64,000 bases of DNA from the IMG/VR virus record IMGVR_UViG_3300028283_000231. One strand, written 5' to 3'. The notes beneath the pieces were generated by a model. That model saw only the letters and a program-made list of their open reading frames with translations. It did not search any database and was not told the DNA's origin. Below are positions 7,563 through 13,749 of this stretch, in pieces. A program made the position numbers and the translations under genes. Origin of the DNA: a virus (lineage: Duplodnaviria > Caudoviricetes). Every line of letters starts with the position of its first letter. The first letter of the stretch is position 1.

Positions 7563-8344
7563 TACAAGAAAGATTATACAGAGAAGACGAGTGGGACGAT
7601 CTTATTCACGCACTGGAAAGATTCAATCTTAATTACGAGATTGTTAAACTTATTCCATTCGTTGACGATTTTGAATTTGAGACAAAAGAAAAAAATGTCT
7701 TTTGTTTTGGTGCGCTTAAGATGGCAAGACTTGCTCCAAAGTACGGTTGGTATCCTGGAATTCTTATGACGCCTAATCACGATTTTAATGTTTATAAAGA
7801 ATATTACAAAGAAAACTTATTGAATTATGACTCAAAAATATACAGAATATCCGAAGATTTTGAATGGAACGGTGATTTCTTTGTTAGGCCTGTATTGGAC
7901 ACTAAGATTTTTAATGGAAGACCTTATGCCATGCAAGACTGGAAAAAAGAAAGCAATCGTCTCTTGTGTAACTCCAAAAGTGATAAGGATAATGGAATAA
8001 CCAACATAGTTAGCGAAGACACTCTTATACAAGTTAGTAGTCTTAAAAATATTCAAAAAGAATTTAGATTCTATATCGTTGATGGTAAGATAGCTACAGC
8101 GAGCCTTTATAAAGAAGGATATTTTGTGAGGTATAGTGATATAGTTGATCAAGGGGCTATAGATTATTGTAACGAGATGATAAAAGTGTTTCAGTTGGCT
8201 GACGCTTTTGTAATGGATATTTGTTTGACTGACGATGAGTGGAAGATAATTGAGTGTGGTTGCCTTTCGTGCGCTGGTCTCTACAAAGCTAACATACCTA
8301 AACTTCTAATGGCATTAGAAGATAAATTTAACATTGAGATATAA
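7550..8344 (+). CDS. ATP-grasp protein (DUF4343/R2K-like)
   Basis: FFVRP..DTK.FNG, EFRFYIVDGKI, FVMDIC, IIECGC.SCAGLY. Confidence 0.75.
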   Translation: MYYIVQERLYREDEWDDLIHALERFNLNYEIVKLIPFVDDFEFETKEKNVFCFGALKMARLAPKYGWYPGILMTPNHDFNVYKEYYKENLLNYDSKIYRISEDFEWNGDFFVRPVLDTKIFNGRPYAMQDWKKESNRLLCNSKSDKDNGITNIVSEDTLIQVSSLKNIQKEFRFYIVDGKIATASLYKEGYFVRYSDIVDQGAIDYCNEMIKVFQLADAFVMDICLTDDEWKIIECGCLSCAGLYKANIPKLLMALEDKFNIEI

Positions 8345-9144
8345 TCTTCTTCTAATCTTTTATTTTTAGAAGAATTAGTGGATCTTGTTGTTATACATAA
8401 GTTATCGATGGATGATATAATTGATGGTAATATACCGTTATCAAATCCATGTTTTATGGATATTTTATGATCTATTGTTGGATATTTTTTATCATTACTA
8501 TTTAAGATTAAATCGTTTTTAATATATTCACCAGTGTAATGATCGAATCCGTCCCATTTATCAAAAACCTGATTAGCAATTAGTAAGGTATATTTATTAA
8601 CTAATAATTCATATTTATGATAATCGCTTCTTTCTTCACGAGAAGACCATCTCTTACTTACAACATTAGATATATACATTTTTTCTTTAACTTCTTCACT
8701 CATAGTTGGATACGGGACATTTAATTTTTCCATACACGTATTCACTTTTTTCAGCTTTATATCTGGTCTTTGAGATGGATGTTCAAATCCATATTTTTTC
8801 AAATTTGTAATTTTAAATTTATTTTTACCTATTTCTGATTGTATTGAAACCTCGGTTCCATAATTTTTTAAGCAAGTTTGTTTACTCTTATCGTTTGAAC
8901 ATTTTTGGGAACAGGAATAATAACCATAGTTATTTACACTTTTCATATATTCTCTATATTGTAATATTTTAATTTTTTCACAAACATCACATTTAACTGT
9001 TATTTTAACAGGACTGCCTGATATTAAATCATTTATATTAACAATAAAAATATCATACATTTTTGTAAAAATATAACCTTTATCAACATAATATTTTTTA
9101 TTGTTACTGTTCCAAGTCATTTTAACTTCTTTATCTAAAATCAT
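8281..9144 (-). CDS. Putative HNH-type homing endonuclease with Zn ribbon
   Basis: CDVC...CSQKC, KYG repeats, TIDHKISIKHGF...NLCITTRSTNSSK. Confidence 0.7.
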   Translation of the reverse strand: MILDKEVKMTWNSNNKKYYVDKGYIFTKMYDIFIVNINDLISGSPVKITVKCDVCEKIKILQYREYMKSVNNYGYYSCSQKCSNDKSKQTCLKNYGTEVSIQSEIGKNKFKITNLKKYGFEHPSQRPDIKLKKVNTCMEKLNVPYPTMSEEVKEKMYISNVVSKRWSSREERSDYHKYELLVNKYTLLIANQVFDKWDGFDHYTGEYIKNDLILNSNDKKYPTIDHKISIKHGFDNGILPSIISSIDNLCITTRSTNSSKNKRLEEDYISMLNLSSNAIRSLGMLAL

Positions 9145-9308
9145 AATATATAAAATTCTTTTTCATTTATAACATCATTCTTAATAAGATCTGTATATAT
9201 TAAATGTTCAATATATTTAGATTTATTTTGAAAATTATCTTCCAAGTATGTCTTTATCTTATCATCTAATGTTATTGATATTTTAACTCTTGATTTTACT
9301 TTTTTCAT
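9141..9308 (-). CDS. Ribbon-helix-helix DNA-binding protein (missed by ORF track)
   Basis: MKKVKSRVKISITLDDKIKTYLEDNFQNKSKYIEHLI; stop overlaps the HNH start (ATGA). Confidence 0.65.
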   Translation of the reverse strand: MKKVKSRVKISITLDDKIKTYLEDNFQNKSKYIEHLIYTDLIKNDVINEKEFYIL

Positions 9309-9417: not shown

Positions 9418-9582
9418 ATGGGAAGACCTAAAGTTAAAGACAAGAAAGTATCTATATCTGTTACTATTAACGAAAAACTTAATCAGGAACTAGACAAGTT
9501 TCTGGTTGAGAATAATTTAAGTAAATCGGAGTATATAGAATATCTAATCAAGAAAAACAATCCTAATTTAGATCAGAAATAA
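9418..9582 (+). CDS. Ribbon-helix-helix (CopG/Arc-like) protein (missed by ORF track)
   Basis: MGRPKVKDKKVSISVTINEKLNQELDKFLVENNLSKSEYIEYLI. Confidence 0.75.
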   Translation: MGRPKVKDKKVSISVTINEKLNQELDKFLVENNLSKSEYIEYLIKKNNPNLDQK

Positions 9583-10284
9583 ATGGATTTTACAAAGTTT
9601 ACAGTTAAAGCAAAAACCGCAATCCAAAAGGCTAGAGAGATTGCCCAAGTCAAAGGACATAAATCTATTGAAACTTCACATATTCTTAAAGGGATTATGT
9701 TAGTTGACGATAATGTTGCTCCTTACATTCTTAAAAAGATGAATGTTGACGTTGACCTTCTTATGAAGATCGTTGATAATATTATAAAATATTATCCAAG
9801 AGATCTCATTAGTAGAGAACACTTGTCACCTTACTCAAATCAGGCATTAGATAGAGCTATCACTTATTCTCTTGAATATGGTGATGAGTTTGTTTCTGTT
9901 GAACATATTCTTATGGGTATTCTTGGTGGAACAGACGTTTTAGCTAAAGAGTTTGTAAAAGAAGGTATTACAATAGAAGGGATTAAATCTGGTTTAGAAG
10001 ATATTAGAAAAGGTGTTAAAATCACTTCTCCAGAAGCTGATATAGCAATCAACGCCACAAATAAATATACTAGAAATCTTAATGAATTGGTAAAAGCAGG
10101 CAAACTTGACCCAGTTATCGGAAGAGACGACGAAATTAAAAGAATTCTTCAAATTCTTTCAAGGAGAACAAAAAATAATCCACTTATCATAGGTGAATCG
10201 GGATGTGTAGACGGTGATACTATTATTACTATTAGAAAAATTTCAAATGATACTACACATGAAAATATAGAAATAGACTATTAA
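9583..10284 (+). CDS. clpB: ClpB-like ATPase, N-terminal fragment fused to split-intein N part
   Basis: Clp_N repeats, KLDPVIGRDDEIKRILQILSRRTKNNPLIIGESG then CVDGDT... Confidence 0.92.
   Translation: MDFTKFTVKAKTAIQKAREIAQVKGHKSIETSHILKGIMLVDDNVAPYILKKMNVDVDLLMKIVDNIIKYYPRDLISREHLSPYSNQALDRAITYSLEYGDEFVSVEHILMGILGGTDVLAKEFVKEGITIEGIKSGLEDIRKGVKITSPEADIAINATNKYTRNLNELVKAGKLDPVIGRDDEIKRILQILSRRTKNNPLIIGESGCVDGDTIITIRKISNDTTHENIEIDY
10204..10281 (+). mobile_element. Split intein N fragment, only 26 aa
   Basis: Block A CVDGDTII directly after the Walker A half GESG, stop after 26 residues. Confidence 0.85.
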
Positions 10285-10341
10285 ATTTTTATATATAACT
10301 TTATCAGGGACAGGAAAAAACCTAACCCTGATGAACTAAAT

Positions 10342-11511
10342 ATGGAAATAAATATAAAAGGTAAACAAAAATTAATATTATCTGATTTTATTGAATTTTA
10401 CGATTATGTTATTAATAATATAATTTTTGAATTGAAATTTGATAAAGATAAAAAATTAGAGCGTTTTTATGAAAATAATAATTATATAAATGGAATAAAA
10501 TTATTTAGATTGAAAATAAGATCTATGTATTATAATTTAACAACATTAAAAATTGATTATTGGTTAAGTAGAGGATGGTCATATGATGAATCTGTAAACA
10601 GAATAAAAGAAATACAATCTATTAGAAGTAATATTTCTAAAGAAAAAATGTTAACATTAAAAGAAATAGATTATAAAAAATGGTGTGAAACGCGTAACAC
10701 AAGGAAAGAATTTTATATGAAGAAGGGGTTAACAGAAGAAGAATCTGTAGATCTTTTAAAAGATAGACAAAAAACATTTTCAATAGAATCCTGTATAATT
10801 AAATATGGCGATAATGGATATGATGTGTGGAAGAATAGGCAAATTAAATGGTATAGTAAAATAAAGAATATAGATTGTGATAGAGATTCAAATTCATCTG
10901 ATTTCTATAAAAATAAATATGGTGATAATTGGATTTTTAAAGCAATTGATGATTGTTCTTTTTTAAATAAAGATTTAATTAAAAATATTATTCAAAAAAC
11001 GAATAATGATTTTGTGTTTTTCATTAAAGAATTAGATGAAAGAATAGAAATAGTAGCTTTAAACGACATTTATTTCATATTTAATTCAAAACTATTGCAA
11101 AATTATTTTGGTAAAAATAAAGAAGAATTAACTGAAATAATATTAGGCACATTAAATATAAACATAAAAGGATTTGGAAATATAAGATATTTCAACAGAC
11201 ATATATGTAGAAGTAATGGAGAATATTATATAGCTAAAAAATTAAAAGAACTTAACATAGATTATGTTTATGAGAAAAAATATCCAAATTCAAAATATGT
11301 CTGTGATTTTTATATACCAATTTTAAATCTTTACGTTGAATATATGGGTATGCTAAAAAGTAATTATATACAAGAAAATCGTCTTGACATATATTTAAAA
11401 TATAAAACTAGATATGATGATAAAGAGAAATTTTGTAAAGATAATAATATAAAATATTTATTTAATAATAATATGGTGGAAATAATAAAAAAAATAACAA
11501 ATGGAAATTAA
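10342..11511 (+). CDS. Free-standing homing endonuclease (PD-(D/E)xK/Vsr-like C terminus) between the split-intein halves
   Basis: SNGEYYIAKKL...YVYEK...CDFYIPILNLYVEYMG; N-terminal W.SRG/KYG repeats. Confidence 0.78.
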   Translation: MEINIKGKQKLILSDFIEFYDYVINNIIFELKFDKDKKLERFYENNNYINGIKLFRLKIRSMYYNLTTLKIDYWLSRGWSYDESVNRIKEIQSIRSNISKEKMLTLKEIDYKKWCETRNTRKEFYMKKGLTEEESVDLLKDRQKTFSIESCIIKYGDNGYDVWKNRQIKWYSKIKNIDCDRDSNSSDFYKNKYGDNWIFKAIDDCSFLNKDLIKNIIQKTNNDFVFFIKELDERIEIVALNDIYFIFNSKLLQNYFGKNKEELTEIILGTLNINIKGFGNIRYFNRHICRSNGEYYIAKKLKELNIDYVYEKKYPNSKYVCDFYIPILNLYVEYMGMLKSNYIQENRLDIYLKYKTRYDDKEKFCKDNNIKYLFNNNMVEIIKKITNGN

Positions 11512-11911
11512 AATTGAAGATTTTTATAATTTAATTAAAAATGATGGTGGCACTTTTGAAGTACTAACGCCAGATGGATTTAAATTAATTGGATATGTTT
11601 ATAAAAAAAATAATAAACAAATATATTCAATAAAATTAGAAAATGGTTTAATCTTGAAAGGTTCAAATGATCATCTAGTTAAAATATATACGTATAATAT
11701 TGAAGAAAACAATATTAACCCTAATATAGAAATATTAGATAACGATACATGGATTAGATTTTCTAATATTAAATATAATGATATAATATGCACTAAAATT
11801 GGAGAATTCAGTGTAGTTAAAATTGACAAGTTAAATAAAAATATAACATATGATTTAGAAGTATTGGATGATAGACACCAATATTATTCTAATGATATAA
11901 TTTCTCACAAT
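11501..11911 (+). mobile_element. Split intein C fragment, 137 aa
   Basis: Block B-like GSNDH, block F YDLEV, terminal HN followed by Thr +1. Confidence 0.85.
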
Positions 11912-13525
11912 ACTGGTAAAACTGCTGTAGCACTTGGTATAGCACACAAGATTGTTAGTGGTGACGTTCCAGATAGTCTGAAAACTAAACAAATCTATTC
12001 ACTTGACCTCACAAATATTGTATCTGGGGCTAAATATAAAGGTGAATTCGAAGAAAGACTTAAAGGCGTCTTTAACGAAATTATCGCATCCAACGGTGAG
12101 ATCATTCTTTTCATTGATGAGATTCATAACCTCATTGGAACTAACGGGGGTGAAGGTTCAATGGATGGTGCTGATATTCTTAAACCCATATTATCAAGGG
12201 GTGAGATGTTAGTTATTGGTGCTACTACTACAAAGGAGTATCATAAATATTTTGAACAAGATAAATCATTTGAGCGTAGATTTCAAACTGTTACCATTGA
12301 AGAACCAACAGTTGAAGAAGCTATTGCCATCTTAATAGGATTGAAAGGAAAATATGAAACTTTCCACAATGTAACTATTAAAGATGAAGCTGTTGTGGCT
12401 GCAGTAGAACTTTCTAAAAGATATATTTCTAATAGATTTTTACCAGATAAAGCCATTGATATTCTCGATGAGGCCTCTTCTAAATTAAAGTTGGACGCTG
12501 AAGTAAAAGAAAAAGTGGTTGACGCCGATCAAATTGCTATAGTTGTATCGGAAGTAAGTCAAATTCCTGTTAATAAATTAAAAGGCAGTGAAAAGGAAAG
12601 ACTTGTAAATCTTGAAAAAGAATTACATAAAAGGGTTATTGGACAAAATGAAGCCATCAAAGCTGTTTCAGATGCTATACGTAGAAGTAGAACAGGTCTT
12701 CAAGATCCAAAGAAACCCATCGGTTCATTCATATTCCTTGGTACCACAGGGGTTGGAAAAACAGAGCTTGCTAAGGCTCTTGCTGAATTTCTTTTCAATG
12801 ACGAAAATTCTATGGTTAGGATTGATATGTCTGAATACATGGATAAAAGCTCAGCTAGTAAACTTATTGGTTCTGCACCAGGTTACGTTGGTTATGATGA
12901 GGGTGGACAACTCACTGAAGCAGTTAAGAGGAAACCTTATAGTGTAGTTCTCCTTGATGAAATCGAGAAGTCCCACCCAGACGTCTTTAATACACTTTTA
13001 CAGGTATTGGACGACGGTAGATTAACAGACAATAAAGGTTATCTTGTTGATTTCAAGAATACTATTATAGTAATGACTTCAAATCTCGGTTCTAGCATCA
13101 TTCAGTCTAATATGCAAGGAATGACTGATGAGACAAGGGATGAAGTTATTAAGAAAACAAAAGATGAAGTTATCGCGATGTTAAGGAGAACAATTAGACC
13201 AGAACTTCTTAATCGTATTGATGAGACTATTGTATTCCAACCTCTTACAAAATCTGAAATTCTTGATATTGTTAAGATGCAGTTTAATGGTATAAAGAAG
13301 ATGTTAAAGAAGAATGGTGTGGATATGACGGCATCTGATGAAGCTTTAAAACAGATTGCTGAGTGGGGATATGATCCTCAGTTTGGTGCAAGACCTGTTA
13401 AGAGGGTAATTCAGGAAAAAGTTATCAATGTACTTTCTGGTTTAATGTTGGAAGATAAGGTATCGAAAGATAATGCAATATTTATTGATGTAAAGGACGG
13501 TCAGTTATTATTTATAAATAAATAG
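11501..13525 (+). CDS. clpB: Split-intein C part fused to the ClpB-like C-terminal fragment (rest of NBD1 and NBD2)
   Basis: ...YYSNDIISHN/TGKT, LFIDEIH, GTTGVGKTELAK, RIDMSEY, LLDEIEKSHPDV, FGARP. Confidence 0.93.
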   Translation: MEIKIEDFYNLIKNDGGTFEVLTPDGFKLIGYVYKKNNKQIYSIKLENGLILKGSNDHLVKIYTYNIEENNINPNIEILDNDTWIRFSNIKYNDIICTKIGEFSVVKIDKLNKNITYDLEVLDDRHQYYSNDIISHNTGKTAVALGIAHKIVSGDVPDSLKTKQIYSLDLTNIVSGAKYKGEFEERLKGVFNEIIASNGEIILFIDEIHNLIGTNGGEGSMDGADILKPILSRGEMLVIGATTTKEYHKYFEQDKSFERRFQTVTIEEPTVEEAIAILIGLKGKYETFHNVTIKDEAVVAAVELSKRYISNRFLPDKAIDILDEASSKLKLDAEVKEKVVDADQIAIVVSEVSQIPVNKLKGSEKERLVNLEKELHKRVIGQNEAIKAVSDAIRRSRTGLQDPKKPIGSFIFLGTTGVGKTELAKALAEFLFNDENSMVRIDMSEYMDKSSASKLIGSAPGYVGYDEGGQLTEAVKRKPYSVVLLDEIEKSHPDVFNTLLQVLDDGRLTDNKGYLVDFKNTIIVMTSNLGSSIIQSNMQGMTDETRDEVIKKTKDEVIAMLRRTIRPELLNRIDETIVFQPLTKSEILDIVKMQFNGIKKMLKKNGVDMTASDEALKQIAEWGYDPQFGARPVKRVIQEKVINVLSGLMLEDKVSKDNAIFIDVKDGQLLFINK

Positions 13526-13527
13526 AA

Positions 13528-13749
13528 ATGAATTTACTTTGTTTAATATTTGGTCATAAGAAGATTGTAAGAAATTGGTACCCAACTGATCCGATAACAT
13601 CGTTGGGATGTACAAGATGTAGGAAAACTCTTGATCAGAGACCGAATCCTGGTTATATAGCAGATTGGTATTATTCGGGATTAAGGCAAACTTTTAAAAG
13701 GGTATTTTCAGCAAATGATCCATATGGTGAAGAAATATGGGACGAATAA
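13528..13749 (+). CDS. Small hypothetical protein, C..FGH/CxxC, ending in DPYGEEIW
   Basis: ORF track and motif. Confidence 0.6.
   Translation: MNLLCLIFGHKKIVRNWYPTDPITSLGCTRCRKTLDQRPNPGYIADWYYSGLRQTFKRVFSANDPYGEEIWDE

Follow-up and report, generated by a model that had tools for sequence, protein, structure and literature searches.

How could a phage obtain an active unfoldase from a gene that is broken inside its catalytic P-loop, and how did the interruption come to lie there? The question is raised by a stretch of 64,000 nucleotides (nt) of viral DNA (the window in what follows), which is part of the 108-kb IMG/VR virus record IMGVR_UViG_3300028283_000231 (Duplodnaviria; Caudoviricetes), a record that holds about half a genome. 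Three co-oriented genes on its plus strand, called here gene 1, open reading frame 2 (ORF2) and gene 3, encode in turn the beginning of a Clp/Hsp100 unfoldase ending in a short N-terminal intein half (IntN), a putative nuclease, and a large C-terminal intein half (IntC) followed by the rest of the unfoldase. We consider it probable that this is a fractured gene, in which a mobile cassette of IntN, hairpin, nuclease and IntC sits in the P-loop codons of the first nucleotide-binding domain (NBD1) of a phage Clp/Hsp100 unfoldase, and from its anatomy and relatives we infer protein splicing in trans, DNA cleavage by the nuclease and a homing target at the P-loop codons.

Anatomy of the locus and its confirmation

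The three genes were read from the ORF listing between 8.5 and 15 kb (Table 1). A TAA stop codon at 10282 closes IntN and an ATG at 11501 opens IntC, and the two intein halves are separate genes. A sequence-only reading of the same DNA had placed the fracture in the Walker A motif of NBD1, with an IntN of 26 amino acids (aa) and an IntC of 137 aa; the ORF listing confirmed this base for base, and a script count returned the same two lengths. Removal of the 26 and 137 residues restores the motif GESGTGKT and joins 207 to 537 residues, which gives the 744-aa product that had been predicted, and the joined junction is colinear and free of indels with intein-less homologues that read ...NNPILIGEPGTGKT... 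at this point. The residue that follows the splice site (+1) is threonine, as had been proposed, IntC ending in SHN directly before TGKT.

Table 1. Coordinates of the fractured clp locus and of neighbouring genes (positions are those of the window)
Feature	Position	Strand	Remarks
287-aa protein	8281-9144	-	Upstream of the clp operon
55-aa ORF	9141-9308	-	Small upstream ORF
54-aa ORF	9418-9582	+	From the ORF listing; its stop codon abuts the gene 1 start codon
Gene 1, 233 aa	9583-10284	+	Ends ...NNPLIIGESG, then a 26-aa tail with Cys first and ...EIDY last, then TAA
N-extein, 207 aa	9583-10203	+	Clp_N and start of NBD1 through the first half of Walker A (GESG)
IntN, 26 aa (Cys1...Tyr26) plus TAA	10204-10284	+	Predicted first beta-hairpin of the HINT fold
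Spacer hairpin	10300-10335	+	Inside the 57-nt spacer, just 5' of the ORF2 start codon
ORF2, 389 aa, putative free-standing homing endonuclease	10342-11511	+	Overlaps gene 3 by 11 nt
ORF2 residues 1-275			Helical N-terminal part and central module with repeats
ORF2 residues about 276-389	11167-11508	+	Restriction-endonuclease-like nuclease domain
Gene 3, 674 aa	11501-13525	+	First 137 residues end ...IISHN, then TGKT
IntC, 137 aa	11501-11911	+	HINT domain minus its first hairpin; blocks B, F and G
C-extein, 537 aa plus stop	11912-13525	+	Thr+1, TGKT, rest of NBD1, NBD2 and D2-small; without M domain
73-aa ORF	13528-13749	+	Directly after the clp gene
398-aa ORF	18199-19395	-	Downstream

The stretch occurs in lake-water runs, and we take its source to be a large lake phage. 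A second lake-water run, from another sample and under another study code, yielded contigs that match the stretch with zero differences. One spans 10046-11013 and thus runs from the extein through IntN, stop codon and spacer into ORF2, another spans 11187-11773, from the end of ORF2 to the start of IntC, and a third spans 11752-12161, from IntC into the extein. A contiguous cis form, which would speak against a split intein, was absent from these second-run contigs, which span all junctions and none of which joins across the ORF2 region. Two apparent contig joints (10767 to 13755 and 12474 to 12822) were set aside, each being carried by a single contig with a side of 21-22 nt and attributable to chance or to another organism. 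The ORF2 protein is also on record from a 208-kb contig, and the same three-gene layout recurs in at least six unrelated contigs (L026-L029, L033 and L035). Identical contig pieces of all three genes were present in two metatranscriptome runs, which we take as a weak hint of expression. The observation itself is thus confirmed, and it lies far beyond chance, IntC matching both solved inteins and at least 59 other IntC-Clp clusters.

A class 1 intein split before its first helix

The identity of the intein, for which comparison with hidden Markov models or profiles had been suggested as a check, is well supported. Compared alone with the PDB sequences of solved inteins, IntC matched VidaL (E 6e-6) and gp41-1 (E 8e-5), and a profile built from 27 IntC relatives matched the same two inteins at E 3e-15 (VidaL, 6vgv) and E 4e-12 (gp41-1); the Pfam model Intein_splicing gave a weak match, under its cut-off (E 0.0024). 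An AlphaFold2 (AF2) model of gene 3 residues 1-160 reached a predicted local distance difference test (pLDDT) value of 90.7. When the IntC model was searched against the PDB with Foldseek, all of the 50 best matches were inteins or intein-like (BIL) HINT domains, with VidaL at the top (E 4.6e-8, TM scores 0.71/0.78, root-mean-square deviation (rmsd) 2.0 A). As modelled, IntC is a true HINT domain with the horseshoe fold.

The residues expected of a working intein are in place. The block A nucleophile is Cys1, directly after GESG, and Cys1 is found in all IntN homologues seen. Block B reads S55-N-D57-H58, the SxxH form that is also found in gp41-1, block F supplies T116, Y117, D118 and H126, and block G consists of S135, H136 and N137. 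Across 26-27 sequences at 43-69% identity, S55, H58, T116, D118, H126, S135, H136, N137, G+2 and K+3 are invariant, with D57, Y117 and T+1 nearly so. All sequence features of class 1 are present, and the predicted intein is placed in that class. The invariance of the catalytic residues at such divergence, together with an IntN motif kept in 10 further loci or proteins, indicates that IntC and IntN are under purifying selection, and we regard the intein as real and probably functional.

Two positions are distinguished for such atypical splits, S1 before helix alpha1 (the VidaL/PolB16 type) and S2 after it (the TerL type), and in atypically split inteins a large IntC goes with an IntN of about 15-37 aa (PMC13014065). 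In the AF2 model helix alpha1 occupies IntC residues 5-15 and it aligns to the corresponding helix of VidaL; therefore the break falls before alpha1, at the S1 position. An IntN of 24-26 aa with conserved C1, T6, K12, S14 and H19 also ends the N halves of P0220, P0222, L023-L029, L033 and L035. The histidine of this set, His19 (10258-10260), is conserved in every homologue seen, a contiguous cis form included; it lies outside the canonical intein blocks and has no counterpart in the 16-aa IntN of VidaL. Elsewhere in the 108-kb record another intein of the same family was not found.

The host is a ClpB-like unfoldase without a middle domain

Pfam recognises Clp_N in gene 1 (E 3e-18) and AAA, AAA_lid_9, AAA_2 and ClpB_D2-small in gene 3, and the host thus shows the Clp_N domain and the two AAA+ modules of the ClpB type. 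The NCBIfam model ClpB is the best model; the N-extein covers its positions 1-204, and the C-extein matches it in two stretches with 799 bits against a cut-off of 1232. An alignment to the ClpB-like ORF of a relative (L010; 62-65% identity) skips exactly L010 residues 410-527, which correspond to the middle (M) domain, and by this alignment the 118-aa coiled-coil M domain between NBD1 and the second nucleotide-binding domain (NBD2) is absent. The host had been named ClpB from the sequence; the likeness to ClpB stands, and the name of a canonical ClpB does not, because the M domain is skipped and the ClpB score stays under the cut-off. We therefore describe the host as a predicted Hsp100 of ClpB-like type from which the regulatory middle domain is missing. 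Its extein keeps the Walker B, pore-loop and sensor motifs. NBD2 reads TSNLGSSIIQSN... and contains no IGF-type ClpP-docking tripeptide, whereas the ClpC-like relative P0058 does have the tetrapeptide GIGF. Neither ClpP nor a second Clp gene was found in the 108-kb record.

The middle gene and the spacer hairpin

About 40 clusters of some 390 aa make up the ORF2 family, alike over their full length at 31-60% identity and found in the same contigs as IntC genes; in six contigs (L026-L029, L033 and L035) the homologue is placed between the intein halves. Its sole match in the family libraries was a PHROG annotated as 'HNH endonuclease' (E 7e-6). The AF2 model has a pLDDT of 90.9, and Foldseek with the whole model found nothing in the PDB under E 0.001. 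By VIA-align residues 281-389 matched I-Bth0305I (3r3p; Z 9.2, rmsd 3.0, 88 residues aligned), Vsr (1cw0; Z 8.4), DUF559 (3hrl; Z 8.0) and VRR_NUC (Z 8.0), and the BFVD and AFDB matches of the nuclease domain were phage homing endonucleases, 'restriction enzyme' entries, a group I intron protein and DUF559. Four residues, E294, D322, E333 and K361, are invariant in the family (26 members); a weak profile match to T7 endonuclease I (E 0.45) pairs the first three with its metal-binding residues E20, D55 and E65. As modelled, ORF2 is a nuclease of the PD-(D/E)xK superfamily that stands outside the Vsr/I-Bth0305I family because the histidine of that family is absent, and it probably acts like the Vsr-like homing endonucleases of fractured genes. 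The endonuclease that had been proposed to lie between the halves is thus borne out as a nuclease-type ORF with the Vsr/I-Bth0305I fold, and not as an enzyme with the catalytic histidine of that family. A distant member of the ORF2 family (P0379) carries Pfam DUF559, and the central repeat module is shared with an ORF that fractures a PhoH gene in LR756500.1 (hhalign 98.9%). A second copy of ORF2 was not found in the 108-kb record.

The hairpin in the spacer has a minimum free energy of -16.7 kcal/mol (z -5.7), and none of 200 shuffled sequences folded as well. The spacers of relatives each fold on their own too and have the motif CAGG...GGnAAA in common; RNAalifold on seven spacers gave no common structure. 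The overlap between ORF2 and gene 3 is 11-17 nt in relatives. Gene 1 and ORF2 share a reading frame in which the TAA is the sole stop (an open frame of 408 aa), and read-through that would fuse gene 1 to ORF2 was considered and rejected, the frame relation not being kept in relatives: L026, L028 and L029 have a different one, and in L027 a TGA interrupts the frame.

Signs of horizontal movement

The extein and the intein of this locus have different nearest relatives. The tree of NBD1 exteins places the window with ClpB-like genes that lack an intein (support 99/99) and sets it apart from 58 other carriers by a branch of 1.26; the tree of IntC places it amid the carriers P0002-P0011, at the end of short paths. 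IntC is up to 69% identical to that of relatives whose exteins share 45-51%. Relative to P0220 the IntN is 100% identical and the N-extein 74%, and relative to P0222 these values are 85% and 32%. The cassette has a GC content of 20.5% (8-13% at third codon positions, GC3), against 33-35% in the exteins (GC3 21-25%). Because the two trees disagree, because the identities contrast in this way and because its GC content is low, the cassette looks horizontally acquired, with entry through the conserved P-loop codons.

Relatives of the intein

A search of 5.8 billion proteins with the IntC region returned at least 59 other clusters in which an IntC is joined to a Clp C-extein, at 45-69% identity. 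All of them read ...SHN/(T or C)GK(S or T), with Thr at +1 in 58 of 59 and Cys in the remaining one. The sequence-only reading had put the intein forward as a new atypical split intein with a threonine nucleophile; the host is indeed new, and the intein is not a singleton, the Clp clusters just described carrying the same intein. Nor is Thr+1 a novelty, for it is the commonest +1 residue of the wider family and is known from Mxe GyrA and split Neq Pol (PMC11766414). An exhaustive HMMER search gave 129 representative proteins, in most of which IntC lies at the very N terminus; their hosts are P-loop ATPases, including AAA+, terminase-like, helicase/RecA-like and PhoH-like proteins, and their +1 residues are T (58), S (30) and C (27). 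GenBank phages have related inteins in TerL and UvsX genes, and no Clp host was present among the GenBank phage matches. Candidate relatives in viral contigs were rejected, all 19 loci being intein-less and the tblastn matches from residue 119 being spurious extensions.

A parallel in another host was seen in LR756500.1 (L032:1135-4397), an unannotated 462-kb genome of an uncultured phage, in which a PIN-PhoH ATPase gene is fractured at the P-loop. Its N half reads ..LTGKAG/C.. and carries an IntN of 26 aa; a 430-aa ORF with the ORF2 central module and a nuclease motif ...EYNGSHIH, histidine present, comes next; and its IntC, 34% identical to that of the window, ends SHN/TGKT.

Many relatives have a second Clp fracture, inside the Walker A motif of NBD2 (G-x-G-K/C...), among them L023:7977-12340, L028:2234-5331, P0002, P0008, P0010, P0012, P0019 and others. 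The intein at this site is again atypically split, with an IntN of 37-38 aa that includes alpha1 (S2-like) and an IntC ending SHN/T, and the ORF between its halves has 506 aa in L023 and 113 aa in L028. Doubly fractured relatives would have to assemble the unfoldase from three polypeptides by trans-splicing twice; the NBD2 site of the window is uninterrupted. The same site holds a contiguous LAGLIDADG-type maxi-intein at GK/T in P0058 (1088 aa; Pfam Hom_end and Hom_end_hint).

Other arrangements concern the NBD1 site. In P0060 (1012 aa) the NBD1 intein is contiguous, a cis form with IntN, a linker of about 20 aa and the retained IntC methionine in one frame, and it looks like a re-fused split intein. 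L034 (137-3628) has its ORF2 homologue and its IntC-Clp gene in divergent orientation, without an N half in the nearest 6 kb; therefore the halves can be dispersed, and the family lives as truly separate genes. The gap in L023 (4181-7893, on a 346-kb contig) holds two DUF723 genes on opposite strands (613 and 617 aa) and no ORF2 homologue, and the gap in L024 holds small ORFs. L026, L033 and L034 likewise have DUF723 genes, on the flanks of the locus.

Proposed mechanism and rival explanations

In the model that we propose, three proteins would be made: an N precursor of the 207-aa N-extein and IntN, the ORF2 nuclease, and a C precursor of IntC and the 537-aa C-extein. The short IntN hairpin would dock into the nearly complete IntC and so complete a class 1 HINT fold. 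Cys1 would then form a thioester at Gly207, the N-extein would be transferred onto Thr+1, and Asn137 would cyclise with the aid of His136 and the block F residues; a final O-to-N shift would leave a normal Gly-Thr bond, with GESGTGKT and the 744-aa two-ring ATPase restored. Without ligation the Walker A motif of NBD1 would stay cut in two. During co-infection ORF2 would cleave clp alleles that lack the intein, in or close to their P-loop codons, and repair would copy the whole cassette, a case of collaborative homing.

Several points weigh against this model. Splicing, association of the fragments and ATPase activity are predictions from sequence, and the large folded N-extein may slow the assembly of an S1-split intein. 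The contigs from the RNA libraries could be carried-over DNA. The trees are unrooted and the extein branch of the window is long; with such trees, an ancient presence of the cassette followed by many losses may still be the explanation. An intein-less allele of the exact Clp lineage, as a homing target, was not found by a search with a degenerate P-loop junction pattern, which in viral contigs returned only relatives at about 50% identity and in metagenome contigs gave no match. For ORF2, neither Pfam nor NCBIfam had a matching family, and the fold matches are middling, their Z scores of 8-9 being moderately above background. A conserved histidine after E333 is absent in all 26 family members examined (EYMG-x-LK), so the Vsr/EDxHD histidine is absent, and the lysine of the ExK motif is likewise absent in all 26.

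The missing histidine and lysine and the lack of a Pfam or NCBIfam family also favour a different account of ORF2, in which it is no longer, or never was, an active homing nuclease and serves as a DNA-binding or regulatory passenger or acts on another target, the cassette being inherited vertically by now. The replacement of ORF2 by other genes in some relatives (the DUF723 genes of L023 and the small ORFs of L024) and the rearranged L034 would fit such a passenger. We regard this as rather unlikely, since E294, D322, E333 and K361 have stayed invariant, three of them at the metal-binding positions of T7 endonuclease I, the family keeps its full length and always adjoins the intein, and the tree incongruence and low GC content point to movement of the whole cassette. 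The intein for its part could be a splicing-dead relic, the Clp pieces working as a non-covalent complex held through the intein halves or the gene being on its way to loss. The evidence here is that of sequence and models; the host lineage is otherwise intein-less, and a recent invasion could have crippled clp; and the lack of ClpP and of a second Clp gene in the record fits as well. Such decay is improbable in view of the intact nucleophiles and block B, F and G residues, which relatives share without change, of three intact ORFs reproduced in another sample, and of an extein with its ATPase motifs in place and with 62-65% identity to a full ClpB-like ORF.

That assembly or gene calling has broken up what is really a contiguous cis-intein with an embedded endonuclease might be suspected from the single frame of gene 1 and ORF2, which only the TAA interrupts, and from the contiguous relative P0060. 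With second-run contigs crossing every junction without a difference, the layout repeated in at least six unrelated contigs, the frame relation varying among L026, L028 and L029 with a TGA in L027, and ORF2 and IntC lying in different frames, an artefact is scarcely credible. Another thought is that splicing is conditional and serves as a phage switch, the unfoldase becoming active when both halves are made and redox state (through Cys1), temperature or stage of infection permit. In its favour are the place of the fracture in the catalytic P-loop, which would make activity strictly dependent on ligation, the reliance of the intein on Cys1, the two ligations that some relatives require, and the conditionally splicing P-loop inteins documented in mycobacterial DnaB. 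Yet the sequence holds no sign of regulation here, both halves stand in one co-oriented gene run, and the patchy distribution, low GC content and tree incongruence fit a selfish element better, and we think such a switch quite unlikely. The fractured-gene model therefore remains the one that we prefer. It can be widened into a joint reading, speculative and as a whole unlikely, in which VidaL-type split inteins with their own nuclease lacking the histidine form a large family that hops between the Clp/Hsp100 lineages of big aquatic phages, some unfoldases are built from three polypeptides by S1-type inteins in NBD1 and S2-type inteins in NBD2, and ligation is a checkpoint that would hold a potentially dangerous unfoldase without M domain off until the halves accumulate or redox state or temperature permit.

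Neighbouring genes

The protein encoded upstream of the clp operon (287 aa) belongs to DUF7487, has an HNH-like C terminus and matches a PHROG named 'homing endonuclease' (E 5e-14). The 55-aa and 54-aa ORFs that follow are similar to each other, face each other across a gap of 109 nt and look by eye like ribbon-helix-helix proteins. For the 73-aa ORF behind the clp gene the match is Pfam DUF1660 (E 1.5e-4), a family of prophage proteins. The 398-aa ORF matches phrog_1211 (E 2e-98), which is annotated as a PurZ-type adenylosuccinate-synthetase homologue of 2-aminoadenine-DNA phages; an ordinary PurA is equally possible.

Significance and comparison with known systems

In its predicted mechanism the locus is standard, a class 1 trans-splicing intein with a free-standing nuclease. 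The novelty lies in the class of host, in the S1-split design of 26 and 137 aa with Cys1 and Thr+1, in how large the natural family is and in the variant nuclease. A census of inteins by Novikova et al. lists ClpP and archaeal LonB as the only protease-related hosts (PMC4760082), and the hosts of fractured genes comprise helicase, IMPDH, DnaE, NrdA/J, ligase and terminase, with no Clp or chaperone among them (PMC2677866). We found no paper on an intein in a Clp/Hsp100 ATPase in the searchable literature, which leaves InBase and subscription journals outside the search. The locus thus extends fractured genes from enzymes of replication and packaging to an ATPase of protein quality control, and it offers a clean case of an intein-nuclease cassette spreading horizontally through conserved P-loop codons. 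Split inteins with a short IntN are prized for protein semisynthesis and for protein editing in live cells, and the literature of 2026 names four natural ones with a synthesizable N piece, AceL TerL, GOS TerL, VidaL and PolB16. To these the locus contributes an S1-split intein with Cys1, Thr+1 and an IntN of 26 aa, and it points to about 60 natural variants at 43-69% identity; the second, S2-type family in the NBD2 P-loop of relatives is a pool for orthogonal pairs and natural three-piece ligation, and the variant nuclease family is identified for studies of its target sites.

The sequence-only reading had likened the intein to AceL-TerL and GOS-TerL. The atypical split with a short IntN is indeed common to them, and the nearest relative is another intein, the S1-split VidaL. 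AceL-TerL (IntN 25 aa), GOS-TerL (IntN 37 aa) and the intein of the window are all naturally split and interrupt a P-loop ATPase, and all three stem from metagenomic DNA of phage type. The TerL inteins have a terminase as host, are split after alpha1 (S2; PMC13014065) and have Cys at +1, whereas the window intein is split before alpha1 and has Thr at +1. Proteins that begin with IntC and continue with terminase-like exteins are members of the same HMMER family, and a PHROG terminase family gives a weak match.

VidaL (6vgv/6vgw; IntN 16 aa, S1) is the best match of the window IntC by sequence, profile and fold. Both inteins are split before alpha1, have the first beta-hairpin alone as N piece and depend on Cys1, and the crystallised chain of VidaL ends ...SHA-SGK, the same kind of P-loop context at +1. 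They are about 21% identical over the fold; VidaL has Ser at +1 where the window has Thr, the hairpin of the window is longer and carries His19, and the window intein, known from sequence and models, has a Clp unfoldase as host. Neq Pol, which is naturally split, and Mxe GyrA share Thr+1 with the window (PMC11766414) and differ from it in having a canonical split or a cis-intein, in their hosts and in sequences that are not close.

The best structural matches of ORF2 residues 281-389, I-Bth0305I, Vsr and DUF559, are 10-16% identical to it. Where I-Bth0305I and Vsr have E-x-x-G-x-H, ORF2 has EYMG-x-LK, and its triad E294/D322/E333 fits T7 endonuclease I better, minus the lysine of that enzyme. 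The parallel for the locus as a whole is the set of fractured genes described by Dassa et al. in 2009 (PMC2677866), in which split inteins such as gp41-1, NrdJ-1, IMPDH-1 and others flank a free-standing GIY-YIG or Vsr-like endonuclease. Those inteins have a canonical split and a long IntN, whereas the window has a short IntN and an ORF2 without the Vsr-type histidine. Otherwise the resemblance is close: gp41-1 is the second-best PDB match of the window IntC, the nuclease of the window is Vsr-like in fold, and the layout is the same, with an IntN half, a hairpin before the endonuclease ORF, overlapping frames and an IntC half.

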